A stretch of DNA of 64,000 nucleotides, from assembly GCF_046105845.1 (NCBI RefSeq), contig NZ_CP151004.1, one strand, 5' to 3'. Source of the DNA: Escherichia coli (GTDB lineage Bacteria > Pseudomonadota > Gammaproteobacteria > Enterobacterales > Enterobacteriaceae). Of the stretch, positions 7,601-10,600 are shown in pieces (position 1 is the stretch's first letter; each line of letters opens with the position of its first letter). The position numbers are program-made.

Positions 7601-10600
7601 TAATGGCATTCAGAATGAGTGAACAACCACGGACCATAAAAATTTATAATCTGCTGGCCGGAACTAATGAATTTATTGGTGAAGGTGACGCATATATTCC
7701 ACCTCATACAGGTCTGCCTGCAAACAGTACCGATATTGCACCGCCAGATATTCCGGCAGGATTCGTAGCCGTTTTCAACAGTAATGAGGCATCGTGGCAT
7801 CTCGTTGAAGATCATCGGGGTAAAACGGTTTATGACGTGGCTTCCGGCGACGCGTTATTTATTTCTGAACTCGGACCGCTACCGGAACATGTCACCTGGT
7901 TATCCCCGGAAGGGGAGTTTCAGAAGTGGAACGGCACAGCTTGGGTGAAAGATGCAGAAGCAGAAAAACTGTTCCGGATCCGGGAGGCGGAAGAAACAAA
8001 AAACAGCCTGATGCAGGTAGCCAGTGAGCATATAGCGCCGCTTCAGGATGCTGTAGATCTGGAGATCGCAACGGAGGAAGAAAATTCGTTGCTGGAAGCC
8101 TGGAAAAAGTATCGGGTGTTGCTGAACCGTGTTGATACATCAACTGCACCTGATATTGAGTGGCCGATAATTCCTGTAACATCATAGTCATTATTTATTT
8201 GTTTTGCTGACATGTTGTATACGACAACGTGTCAGCAGTTTGACTGGTATTATAACGAATATATTGTAATGTTTTCTGGTGTTATTAATTGTTGTTTTAT
8301 TACCATATATCTATGGGTTTTGTTTTCTGCTCATCTAAACAAAATGCACAGATGTAAGCCCCCTTACTTCGGTTGTACTGAACCGTTTCTAAAGCAGAGT
8401 CAAGATGTTTACTATCAAAGTTCCAGCTTTTTTCCATAACAGAAACACATTTTCTGCAATAGAAACTTTCTTTTGAGTTAGTATCTCCTGAATCATTTTT
8501 AGTGTAGCCAAAGAATTTTTTTGCTGATTCCTTTGAACATGCGGAAATGGCTGCAGTGAACTCATAATGAGTTTGAAGCATAGCCCATACAATACCTGAA
8601 AATTCTTCATCCTCGTCTTCATCTAGTCCTATATTAATGCCGCCAGAGGAATGTATTGCTTTATATTTATACCTATGCCATATCCAGTGTGCTGATTCAG
8701 TATTTAGATAGTTGTGAGCACGTACAACTGATGTGAAAATTAGCTCTGGCATTATATCTGTTTTTTTATCAACCGTATGCATAAAACGATTTCTTAGAAT
8801 GCGCATACTATTAAACCAAGTAATAAAGTCATCAGGCAGTGATTTAGAGGCGAAAGTATTATATACTTTAATTAAATCTTGGGCGTCTAATGTGTGGAAG
8901 TCTGAAAATGAAATGTTACCTTCACTATCAGGTTTAGGTGTATTGCGAGTTGCATTCGTGATAAGTAGATAAGGTGATATTTCGACGATAAGTCCTTTTA
9001 GTCTGAATTCAATGGATTGAAGTATCAAATTAAAAGATGTAATCAATTTTGGTCTAGCAAATAACCAATAATGCTCTAAATTTTTAATATCTGATTCTGT
9101 ATAGAATTTAGACGTTTTACAATAACTATTCCAAAGGTTTATATCTCTGTAATCATAAGCTAAATCGGCAATTTTTTCCCAAGCCTCATTTACCATGTGG
9201 TCAGCCATTGTATAAAAATCAGTCTTTGTTGGAATGTCAGTTATCATTATCAATCTACCTTTGGGTCTTTATTGTTGTCTATCAAGATATAATATTCAGG
9301 CTGGAGTGGCTAATGTTGATCTACTTATTTTCTCCCGGTAAGTCAGTTTATCGCGATATAAGCCGCATTTGATTTTGGCGACTATGGTCGTGTTAGGTAT
9401 GTATCTGGCGTGTTACTGCGCCAGATTAAATATAAACCAATAATATTAAAGGGTGTTACTCTCTTGACAGATTTAGGGAACAAATCACTCGTCAGCTGAC
9501 TCCCAAGTATCTTTCAGAGTTTCCTGAACAAAAGTTTTAGCTGAATCTTTATCGGCGGTGCGCCTAACAGAAAAACCATCGTTGCTGGTGGCTTTTACGA
9601 TCATCTCCACATCGTCATAATGCTCGCCAATGTATTGGGTTAATTCTTCCTTTAATGCGTCTACAGCGCCGTTTGGCATTTGGTCATTTTGTCTTTGGCT
9701 ATGGAGATCTCAATACGCATAACATTTCTTTTGTACTGCGTTTGTAGACAGTATTATTCTTATCTGTGTAAATAAACAGTATCAAGACTTCGTTTTAGCT
9801 GCATAAGAAAAAAGAGATGGATACATTCGGAAAGATTTTGATGGTGGTAGGCTAAGTGAATAGCCTAAAGGTGTTTTACCCCAATTATTCCCCGGTATTT
9901 CTCCGCATAAAAAACAATCATAAAAACAACAGCCATAATAGGCTGGTTCTTAAGGGATTTTTGGTCCACGAGAGAATTTGAACCTCCGACCCCCGACACC
10001 CCATAATGGTGTAATTAATCAGGTTAAATATTTAGCAGATCCTCTACAATATCATTAAACCCAGATGCCTGTTTAGATACAGAATTGAATAAGTCTCTAA
10101 GTGCTTGTGTTTGCTCAAAAGTTTCCCAAAGTGTTTTATAACTTGGCGTTACAATTGCTAATACTAAGCCTTCCGCCCATGACCATTCATGTTCATCAAA
10201 ATAGTAGCGATATTTTCTGCTGTATATAACAAAATCCTTTTCCTTATATTTAGCATGAAACACAACTTGAATTATATCCTGTGTACCATTAACAAGGTTT
10301 TCAGGCGCATCAATTGCCATCCAATTTATCATTTTTTGGACAGTTAACTTATTTAATGAAACAATTAGCTTTGTGGTTTTATCGTTATGCATAATTAGTC
10401 CAGTTGCATATCTTTCACAATTTCGTTAACTCTTGAGTTGAGTATACTCAACTTCTCATAGAGCTTCCAGGCTTGGTCTTGGTCATTGATATTAATGGAG
10501 ATTTCTTTTCTTCGAAAGATTCCTTTGGGTTTGACTTCATCAAAAAATATATCAATCTTTGAGCGTTCCTTGGTTGGAAGCCTGCTGAAAAGGCTTTCAG

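Follow-up and report, generated by a model that had tools for sequence, protein, structure and literature searches.

A tRNA-like fragment lies on the minus strand at positions 9955-10012 of the window (the whole 64,000-nt stretch of Escherichia coli contig NZ_CP151004.1 analyzed here), roughly 1 kb within a lambdoid prophage that has been truncated and that occupies ssrA, the tmRNA gene. What is this fragment, and how did it come to lie in the interior of such an element? The initial annotation, which quoted the sequence as we found it, offered a relic of a tRNA-derived attachment site or of a phage-borne tRNA, marking an internal junction between accreted elements.

Homology of the fragment to proL

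On the minus strand, positions 10011-9962 are homologous to the 3′ portion of proL, the tRNA-Pro(GGG) gene of E. coli; the homology runs from the anticodon arm through the terminal ACCA, and 47 of the 52 alignment columns are identical. Sequence homology and genomic context point to tRNA-Pro. The register given by the alignment to proL is as follows.

9962..10011, minus strand: core of the relic att site, corresponding to the 3′ portion of a proL-type tRNA-Pro(GGG)
10009-10005, minus strand: decayed 5′ anticodon stem
10004-9998, minus strand: anticodon loop ATGGGGT, with anticodon GGG
9997-9993, minus strand: 3′ anticodon stem GTCGG
9992-9988, minus strand: variable loop GGGTC
9987-9971, minus strand: T-arm, consisting of GGAGG (9987-9983), the TTCAAAT loop (9982-9976) and TCTCT (9975-9971)
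9970-9966, minus strand: 3′ strand of the acceptor, with a 2-nt deletion
9965, minus strand: discriminator A
9964-9962, minus strand: CCA

The T-arm had been recognized correctly in the initial annotation. The ACACC/ATTATGG/GGTGT hairpin described there is able to form, yet its register is not that of the homologous tRNA, the alignment to which places the anticodon loop at ATGGGGT. The statement that no CCA is encoded was mistaken, as the 3′ end of the fragment reads CGTG--G-A-CCA (9970-9962), in register with the CGTGCCG-A-CCA of proL except for the 2-nt deletion.

The fragment is not a complete tRNA gene, as had been noted. The 50 nt upstream of it show no similarity to the 5′ half of proL (P = 0.37), which agrees with the reported lack of a matching 5′ acceptor strand. 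ARAGORN did not call a tRNA here, and the Rfam covariance models gave no tRNA or tmRNA match on the fragment at the gathering threshold, at a relaxed threshold (E ≤ 10) or when the fragment edge was made the end of the stretch. Judged as a functional tRNA gene, with a complete cloverleaf including the 5′ acceptor strand and D-arm and an RF00005 score of at least 29 bits (the gathering score), the relic falls short.

The absence of a covariance-model or ARAGORN match could favor the view that the hairpins are fortuitous, or a simple terminator unrelated to any tRNA, and the initial annotation had named a missing covariance-model hit among the grounds for abandoning a tRNA origin. Direct homology to proL and to live attachment sites outweighs this result. 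A BLAST search of a 28-Gb database matched the fragment and its flank to the proL locus in 5,425 of 5,426 E. coli genomes, with E values for the native loci ranging from about 1e-10 down to 2e-18 among the matches listed. The intact 29-nt block from the anticodon loop to the T-loop (10004-9976; ATGGGGTGTCGGGGGTCGGAGGTTCAAAT) occurs once in the window and was matched in none of 100 shuffles. Moreover, neither of the hairpins described earlier precedes a T-run, and the terminator-like hairpin proper lies further downstream. The similarity of the relic to a tRNA is real and far beyond chance; the probability left to fortuitous hairpins or a simple terminator is negligible, and that reading can be regarded as refuted by the homology results.

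Live proL attachment sites and their phage arm

A complete lambdoid prophage occupies proL in strain 2020N21-246. Its attL consists of the bacterial 5′ half of the gene, the core and a phage arm that is 98% identical to window positions 8200-10011; in attR, the core has the left arm of the phage before it and the bacterial flank behind it. (The distal copy of proL lies on the far side of the record origin.) Among the best 60 of the 251 genomes that bear the arm, 41 have it under an annotated tRNA-Pro. The two junctions are reciprocal hybrids, as expected of site-specific recombination, and the cores of the live attL, attR and attP are identical to proL. Our literature search found nothing specific on a proL-specific E. 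coli prophage or on the relic itself.

Phage records with a substantial match to core and arm were only those of Flotzy, Eeyore, Phi06_2987 S and Alteromonas P24 (a short match), with a partial match in Gifsy-2. The first four also encode the closest homologues of the proL-type integrase (WP_061316132.1), with identities of 76.7% (Flotzy), 76.7% (Eeyore), 75.5% (Phi06_2987 S) and 39.7% (Alteromonas P24). In Flotzy and Eeyore, the gene order is xis-like, int, site, umuD-like, dinI and tail fiber.

The arm that adjoins the core in these phages is also present next to the relic, where proL homology from the anticodon loop to the 3′ end is contiguous with a hairpin and three repeats, as in the attP core and right (P′) arm of proL phages.

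9920..9950, minus strand: in the phage-type P′ arm, terminator-like hairpin (stem 9945-9930) with its T-tract (tail 9929-9920), identified by terminator scan, alignment and folding
9905-9896, 9894-9885 and 9883-9874, minus strand: three direct (C/T)GG(G/A)G-A-rich repeats with 11-bp spacing, identified by pattern comparison

The pattern scan of the minus strand returned the GC-rich hairpin and T-tract as CAGCCTATTATGGCTG followed by TTGTTTTTAT. This hairpin is homologous to the proL terminator, with compensatory changes in the stem, and its folding energy is −12.3 in the window relic, compared with −16.8 in the live phage arm and −13.5 at K-12 proL. The window arm carries two substitutions in the hairpin and T-tract, both of which weaken the structure relative to the live arm. 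The hairpin may nevertheless still terminate transcription of the two-gene cassette (described below) that reads into the relic. The live attL and phage Flotzy have the three GGGGAA-like repeats too, at positions +56, +67 and +78. By strict pattern, there are two in Eeyore and one in Gifsy-2; the K-12 proL flank has none. The repeats are putative arm-type sites at which the integrase of the old P′ arm would have bound.

Could the fragment instead be a decayed phage-borne tRNA-Pro gene, which once yielded a functional tRNA and was never an attachment site? The live phage site is full length and tRNA-like, and the PGAP annotation calls the attR hybrid a 78-nt tRNA-Pro. The copy in GPEC128 furthermore retains significant similarity to the 5′ half of proL (P = 0.004). 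The attR copy, however, scores 18.3 bits against the gathering score of 29 and is rejected by ARAGORN. In the free phages, identity with host proL begins only with the anticodon loop, the sequence to its left being diverged, and the site adjoins int and co-occurs with one integrase family. The junctions of the proL prophage, being reciprocal recombination hybrids, also speak against a mere tRNA gene, and we consider a formerly functional phage tRNA very unlikely. The phrase "phage-borne tRNA" in the initial annotation holds only insofar as the live attP is a full-length tRNA-like sequence, one that scores below threshold. Given the GPEC128 copy, the ancestral site may have been full length and tRNA-like, which would blur the line between an attachment site and a phage-borne tRNA pseudogene.

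The ssrA prophage and a probable exchange of its integration module

The relic shares its surroundings with the remains of a phage that used a different attachment site.

11039..11401, minus strand: ssrA (tmRNA gene), the integration target, identified by ARAGORN and by Rfam RF00023 (292.8 bits)
10923..11071, minus strand: ssrA-type att repeat (attL), comprising the last 33 nt of ssrA and 116 nt downstream, identified from the 149-nt repeat in strain 2017-02-2CC
10915-10884, minus strand: conserved terminator hairpin after the ssrA att repeat
7039..11070, strand not assigned: truncated lambdoid prophage remnant, 99.7% identical to positions 22054-18023 of the circular phage record described below
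9717-9482, minus strand: DinI-like pseudogene of the remnant (DinI Pfam match)
9244-8297, minus strand: hypothetical gene of the remnant
7603-8187, plus strand: tail fiber assembly gene of the remnant
Truncated tail fiber gene of the remnant, known from annotation

The 149-nt ssrA-derived direct repeat flanks a whole prophage in strain 2017-02-2CC; a 25-nt pattern search of the fetched loci for distal att repeats had given the primary sites only, and the ssrA repeat was found later by BLAST. In the window, the distal copy is absent because the prophage is truncated at about position 7039. We found no integrase in the window remnant, and a 317-aa protein had no match in Pfam, PADLOC or PHROGs. 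Two candidate explanations that derive the fragment from the neighboring gene were ruled out. It is not the 3′ end of a second tmRNA gene, duplicated or foreign, of the sort that would mark tandem islands at ssrA, as it aligns with proL and not with ssrA. It is also not an Islander-type attR, i.e., a repeat of the ssrA 3′ end that marks the end of an island, since the true ssrA repeat is the 149-nt sequence at the far prophage end in 2017-02-2CC.

A displaced piece of the chromosomal proL locus, brought here by rearrangement between proL and ssrA prophages or by tandem accretion of two islands, would be another way of placing proL sequence beside ssrA. Syntenic lambdoid prophages occur at both loci in E. 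coli and offer homology for such an exchange, and ssrA is a known hotspot with an extreme diversity of elements (PMC3603311). Beside the fragment, however, there is no sequence of yejM, of the proL 5′ half or of yejO, and its flank is the phage-type arm rather than a bacterial one. No integrase or second att pair marks a separate island between ssrA and the relic. An identical relic is furthermore present in the circular 44.6-kb phage record pZ1323HEC0010-3, whose match to the window begins at position 11070 and which carries int, cargo, the ssrA-type attP, the cassette, the relic and dinI; the internal joint is therefore a mosaic within one phage genome, and a displaced proL fragment is highly improbable. 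The initial annotation was right to suspect an internal junction, as homology between ssrA-type and proL-type phages resumes at the left edge of the relic, but the junction does not separate two islands accreted in tandem.

The comparison of the two phage types locates the breakpoints. ssrA-type and proL-type phages are syntenic, and their homology ends after yfdR; 7 nt ahead of the anticodon loop it sets in again and continues at 97.4% identity over 3.1 kb. Their integrases are unrelated (22% identity over 98 aa). Such synteny between phages with unrelated integrases, together with homology that resumes so close to the anticodon loop, suggests a fossil of integration-module exchange. In a cohesive int-attP module, the cognate integrase is encoded near the site (PMC7192596). 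The complete relatives of the window prophage carry an ssrA-type integrase, so the cognate enzyme is missing from the relic's surroundings; the lack of a proL-type integrase nearby marks the sequence as a relic and not as an active member of its family.

The core also departs from proL by three substitutions and the 2-nt deletion over 52 columns. All three ssrA-linked relics carry CCGTC changed to CCAT(C/T), with one substitution in common, and each has private lesions, which in the window relic are a C-to-T change in the T-stem and the 2-nt acceptor deletion. The core is about 10% diverged, versus 2 to 3% for the adjoining arm; this excess would fit, hypothetically, relaxed constraint and the loss of "refreshing" by recombination with proL.

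The homology to proL, the junction structures, the linkage of site and integrase in free phages, the breakpoints and the decay pattern lead us to conclude, with high confidence, that the fragment is the fossil core and right (P′) arm of a proL-specific lambdoid attP left by integration-module exchange. The suggestion of an attachment-site relic in the initial annotation is thereby borne out by comparative evidence. We infer both the mechanism of the exchange and its direction, from an ancestral proL type to a derived ssrA type, the direction being read from the decay pattern and not from a phylogeny.

The history most probably ran as follows. In the proL phages, int adjoins a copy of proL that extends from the anticodon loop to the 3′ end and is followed by the phage's own terminator and putative arm-type repeats, such that integration regenerates a working proL. 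In one lineage, xis, int and the left arm would have been swapped for an unrelated module, in which an integrase specific for ssrA came together with an ssrA-type attP and cargo. The resulting phage integrates at ssrA and has the proL core and right arm as orphans, roughly 1 kb within its attL end and just upstream of dinI. With no cognate integrase and no part in rebuilding a tRNA, the core is decaying. The window prophage was later cut within the tail fiber gene, so that the relic now lies in a remnant of 4 kb.

The cargo slot and comparison with known systems

The interval between the ssrA-type att region and the relic is occupied by a variable set of genes.

10012..10886, minus strand: variable cargo slot, from the ssrA-type att region to the relic, identified by boundary comparison between strains
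10856-10395, minus strand: first gene of an orphan cassette, 153 aa
10392-10024, minus strand: second gene of the cassette, 122 aa

The same slot holds AbiTii in one strain and IS3 with PD-(D/E)XK and GIY-YIG genes in another. Three different cargo sets thus lie between the same two limits, the ssrA att terminator and the left edge of the relic. The cassette proteins had no match in Pfam, PADLOC or PHROGs, and the 153-aa protein had no tblastn match in phages. The relic pinpoints a sharply bounded slot that exchanges accessory and probable defense genes, including this uncharacterized cassette.

These boundaries raise the question of whether the relic is retained for a function, as a terminator or insulator and conserved recombination flank of the cargo slot or as a secondary site usable by proL-type integrases. 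The terminator-like hairpin lies directly downstream on the cassette strand, the bounded cargo sets are consistent with a conserved flank, and the 29-nt block and arm repeats are intact. Yet the hairpin with its T-tract carries two substitutions that each make it weaker than the live arm, lesions accrue independently in each lineage, and descent of all copies from a single ancestral junction would explain the sharp boundary just as well. Retention for a function is unlikely. Distinctly unlikely, too, is a specific form of this idea, in which the relic and the ssrA att terminator would serve as conserved borders on either side of a slot for cassette exchange, in lambdoid and related prophages that integrate at ssrA, with a largely intact core and arm repeats that may still be recognized by proL-type integrases of coresident prophages; if it were true, Int-mediated cargo capture or phage-into-phage integration would be possible. 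The fossil attP most likely has no current recombination function.

Fragments of tRNA genes made by integrative elements are common and well understood, and integration-module mosaicism among lambdoid phages is textbook knowledge. The relic is ordinary biology of this well-understood kind and not a new RNA gene, and as a discovery it is of little importance. It does account for a tRNA-like sequence that is not annotated in genomes of the E. coli HS type. It also calls for caution with tools that use such fragments to delimit islands, as a t(m)RNA fragment found close to an integration hotspot can come from a gene other than the neighboring one.

The closest counterparts are the sites of Flotzy, Eeyore, Phi06_2987 S and the 2020N21-246 prophage, which likewise have the core and a homologous P′ arm between int and the dinI/tail fiber genes. 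Those sites are intact and lie beside a cognate integrase, whereas the window relic is mutated and has no such integrase. Gifsy-2 of Salmonella Typhimurium is similar in having a truncated tRNA-Pro core with a homologous arm near the tail-fiber/moron end, between sseI and the prophage end, and in being absent from the listed proL-type integrase homologues. It differs in its host, in its neighboring cargo (sseI) and in a truncation that begins in the variable loop.

Fragments of tRNA genes made by integrative elements are the basis of Islander and TIGER (PMC4383910 and PMC7192596) and have been surveyed (PMC9897764). Like these, the relic is a partial 3′ tRNA copy with a terminator in a phage att site, and its live counterparts flank prophages as direct repeats. 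Unlike these, it does not resemble the neighboring gene ssrA, is internal rather than end marking, has no cognate integrase and is mutated. SopE-phi of Salmonella Typhi offers a further parallel, as its attL has a tmRNA gene fragment although the phage is at another site, nested in another element (PMC7192596). In both cases, a phage-borne t(m)RNA att fragment away from its gene reveals integration history. The SopE-phi fragment is part of the phage's current module, and its location is interpreted as an off-target insertion (PMC7192596), whereas the relic described here is most probably the decaying leftover of a module that has been replaced.

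Homology of the fragment to the 3′ part of proL

The tRNA-like fragment lies on the minus strand (window 10011-9962) within the prophage remnant at the tmRNA gene ssrA, and the sequence quoted for it in the initial annotation agrees with the window (10012-9955, minus strand, ACACCATTATGGGGTGTCGGGGGTCGGAGGTTCAAATTCTCTCGTGGACCAAAAATCC). ARAGORN called only ssrA and one tRNA-Glu elsewhere in the window, with no call at the fragment. Rfam likewise gave no match there at the gathering threshold, at E ≤ 10, or when the scan was ended at the fragment edge to admit truncated matches. 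The window has a single copy of the 29-nt block ATGGGGTGTCGGGGGTCGGAGGTTCAAAT, which none of 100 shuffles contained. A 131-nt query around the fragment matched 5,425 of 5,426 complete E. coli genomes, with nearly all matches under an annotated tRNA-Pro at 82 to 84% identity (listed E-values to 2e-18); the fragment is therefore far beyond chance. The position of ssrA, 1 kb upstream and on the same strand, first raised the suspicion of a duplicated tmRNA 3′ end, a reading that sequence comparison with ssrA did not support.

The true register is given by alignment to proL, the host tRNA-Pro(GGG) gene downstream of yejM, with 47 of 52 columns identical:

proL: ...CACCGTC-ATGGGGT-GTCGG-GGGTC-GGAGG-TTCAAAT-CCTCT-CGTGCCG-A-CCA
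window: ...CACCATT-ATGGGGT-GTCGG-GGGTC-GGAGG-TTCAAAT-TCTCT-CGTG--G-A-CCA

Features of the ssrA region in the window
11401-11039, minus strand: ssrA, the tmRNA gene (ARAGORN)
11071-10923: ssrA-type att repeat, 149 nt (match to the repeat of the 2017-02-2CC prophage)
10024-10856, minus strand: two-gene orphan cassette, encoding 153 aa (hydrophobic N-terminal segment) and 122 aa
10004-9998, minus strand: anticodon loop ATGGGGT (proL alignment)
9964-9962, minus strand: encoded CCA (proL alignment)

Since this register places the anticodon loop at ATGGGGT, the ACACC/GGTGT hairpin described in the initial annotation is a misregistration, and the CCA reported there as missing is encoded. The observation thus concerned a real sequence and erred in these two details. 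The 5′ acceptor strand is indeed missing: only this strand and the D-arm are absent from the fragment, and the 50 nt upstream have no similarity to the proL 5′ half (P = 0.37). The fragment qualifies neither as a tRNA gene nor as an Islander-type displaced fragment of the adjacent gene.

Homology to the proL locus extends ∼50 nt beyond the tRNA, across a terminator hairpin whose stem carries compensatory changes (CCAGCC...GGCTG(T) in the window versus CCAACC...GGTTGG in the host); the window version is the one seen at prophage junctions. These changes suggest selection for a working terminator on a phage arm (the phage-type P′ flank) that would complete proL after integration. Aligning window 9945-9930 with L003 (∼3070-3090) gives CCAGCC/GGCTGG for the phage copy of the terminator and CCAACC/GGTTGG for the host. 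Beyond the hairpin, three (C/T)GGGGAA-like repeats with 11-bp spacing (at +56, +67, and +78) recur in a live attL and in phage Flotzy, with related repeats in Eeyore and Gifsy-2 and none in the K-12 proL flank. We infer that they are arm-type integrase binding sites.

Live counterparts at proL

Strain 2020N21-246 carries a complete lambdoid prophage at proL. Its yejM-side junction reads bacterial 5′ half, core (the tRNA-derived part of the att site), and phage arm, followed by DinI-like, hypothetical, tail fiber assembly, tail fiber, lom, and J genes, and this stretch shares 98% identity with window 8200-10011. At the far junction, the order is integrase, small gene, phage tRNA-like left arm, core, and bacterial flank. 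These junctions are the reciprocal attL/attR hybrids expected of site-specific recombination. The arm occurs in 251 of 5,426 genomes, and an annotated tRNA-Pro underlies 41 of the best 60 of these 251. In the phage collection, substantial core and arm matches were found in Flotzy, Eeyore, and Phi06_2987 S, with lesser matches in Alteromonas phage P24 (35 nt) and Gifsy-2 (partial). The first four are exactly the phages with the closest homologues of the proL-type integrase (76.7, 76.7, 75.5, and 39.7% identity, respectively). Flotzy and Eeyore share the order xis-like gene, integrase, site, umuD-like gene, dinI, and tail fiber, and their identity with proL starts at the anticodon loop and ends at CCGACCAAAA. 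Together, the prophage junctions, the arm distribution, and the integrase linkage in phages show that the sequence is the core and P′ arm from the attP of a proL-specific integration module. The fragment has the structure of such a core and arm; without a cognate integrase and with a mutated core, it does not qualify as an active attP.

In the marine phage P24 (MK241539.2), the integrase (8323-9447), 39.7% identical to the E. coli proL-type enzyme, lies ∼0.8 kb from the 35-nt tRNA-Pro core match (10268-10302), so the pairing of this integrase family with tRNA-Pro seems to be kept across distant hosts.

The attR hybrid of 2020N21-246, which joins the phage left arm to the proL core at the distal prophage end (L008 11547-11624; NZ_CM125675.1 5026546-5026623), is annotated by PGAP as a 78-nt tRNA-Pro. 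It scores 18.3 bits against the Rfam tRNA model (gathering score, 29) and is not called by ARAGORN. This is probably a false annotation of the kind discussed previously (PMC9897764). The live attP is thus a full-length, subthreshold tRNA-like sequence, the left part of which has been replaced in the window lineage.

Exchange of the integration module and the cargo slot at ssrA

The window is E. coli HS-like (99.5 to 99.7% identity). Downstream of ssrA, it carries the two-gene cassette, the relic, a frameshifted DinI-like gene, a hypothetical gene, a tail fiber assembly gene, and a truncated tail fiber gene. In the closest genome, 2017-02-2CC, the lambdoid prophage is complete and is flanked by direct repeats of 149 nt, made up of the final 33 nt of ssrA and the 116 nt that follow. 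The circular 44.6-kb record pZ1323HEC0010-3 (NZ_CP148393.1), which carries a plasmid annotation, has a full lambdoid gene set that includes, in order, integrase, three cargo genes, ssrA-type attP, identical cassette, identical relic, dinI, and tail fiber genes. Thus, the relic belongs to the interior of a phage genome that integrates at ssrA. The record, which includes terminase, portal, capsid, tail, lysis, Q, repressor, and integrase genes and a ParA-family gene beside int, probably represents either a phage-plasmid or the genome of a phage that has been excised or is replicating.

The integrase of the ssrA type is unrelated to that of the proL type (22% identity over 98 aa), and the two have disjoint relatives, those closest to the former being in Citrobacter phage phiNP, Escherichia phage LLS, and Klebsiella phage Kp4866-6. 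At the nucleotide level, the two phage types are homologous across yfdP, yfdQ, and yfdR (94.9%); the homology then ends, restarts 7 nt ahead of the anticodon loop, and extends over 3.1 kb (97.4%). Between the homologous parts, the ssrA-type phage has 5.7 kb (xis-like gene, int, cargo, ssrA attP, and cassette) and the proL-type phage has 3.4 kb (xis-like gene, int, small gene, and left arm). This difference is an exchange of the integration module, consistent with the known mosaicism of lambdoid phages. Such a swap would have orphaned the proL core and right arm and left them in the ssrA-type phage. Integrase and attP form a cohesive module (PMC7192596), which is also consistent with the exchange.

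The core is identical in all live sites (empty proL, attL, attR, and the Flotzy and Eeyore attPs). One substitution (CCGTC to CCAT(C/T)) is common to the three ssrA-linked versions examined, each of which also has lesions of its own: a T-stem C-to-T change and a 2-nt acceptor deletion in the window, HS, and circular phage; a 1-nt acceptor deletion in c1-17; and a variable-loop T-to-G change in GPEC128-620, where similarity to the proL 5′ half persists (P = 0.004). The pattern is a signature of relaxed constraint following a single ancestral event. Two terminator-weakening substitutions are also present in the window, HS, and circular phage (−12.3 versus −16.8 kcal/mol).

Salmonella Gifsy-2, absent among the listed proL-type integrase homologues, also has a fossil att site of this type, located between sseI and the end of the prophage (L012 1507-1585; NC_010393.1 44256-44334). 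Its tRNA-Pro core is truncated otherwise than that of the window and is accompanied by a homologous hairpin and a GGGGAA-repeat arm, so such fossils are not confined to the one phage described here.

In the three ssrA-linked variants, the ssrA 3′ end through the terminator hairpin (window 11120-10887) is conserved at 91 to 93%, and conservation returns at the relic's left edge (10010/10009) at 97 to 98%. The intervening content differs: an 876-bp orphan cassette in the window, an AbiTii-domain gene in c1-17, and an IS3 with PD-(D/E)XK, hypothetical, and GIY-YIG genes in GPEC128-620. On its right, this variable cargo slot is thus bounded by the relic. The old proL-type terminator immediately follows the cassette on the same strand and is a candidate terminator for it. 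Possibly, the relic and the ssrA att terminator serve as flanks with a function in cargo exchange, or the relic retains some activity as a secondary att site. The cassette is rare (∼12 of 5,426 E. coli genomes). Its proteins have no Pfam, PADLOC, or PHROGs match; the 153-aa protein has no phage match by tblastn, and two conjugative plasmids of Klebsiella encode homologues with 33.6% identity to the 122-aa protein. The cassette is a candidate for accessory or defense cargo.

Cargo also varies in a second region, which separates the ssrA-type integrase from attP and holds an AAA ATPase and a DNA adenine methylase in 2017-02-2CC (L006 17514-20226) and ParA and two hypotheticals in pZ1323HEC0010-3 (L009 16010-17932). 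The Rfam families isrC and IS009 match window 6848-6970 and 7946-8144, inside or at the edge of the prophage remnant, the latter within the tail fiber assembly open reading frame (7603-8187); the definition of these "sRNA" families appears to rest on prophage sequence.

Comparison with known systems

The suggestion in the initial annotation that the fragment is a relic of a tRNA-derived att site is supported by the proL homology, the live counterparts at proL, and the module exchange. In the literature searched, we found no account of this proL fossil in phages of the ssrA type. Among E. coli integration sites, the tmRNA locus is an extreme hotspot (PMC3603311), and tRNA gene fragments from integrative elements are widespread and routinely used for delimiting islands (PMC4383910, PMC7192596, and PMC9897764). 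The fragment is an ordinary evolutionary fossil of a kind already known, and SopE-phi of Salmonella Typhi, which carries a tmRNA gene fragment while located elsewhere, is a recorded mirror-image case (PMC7192596).
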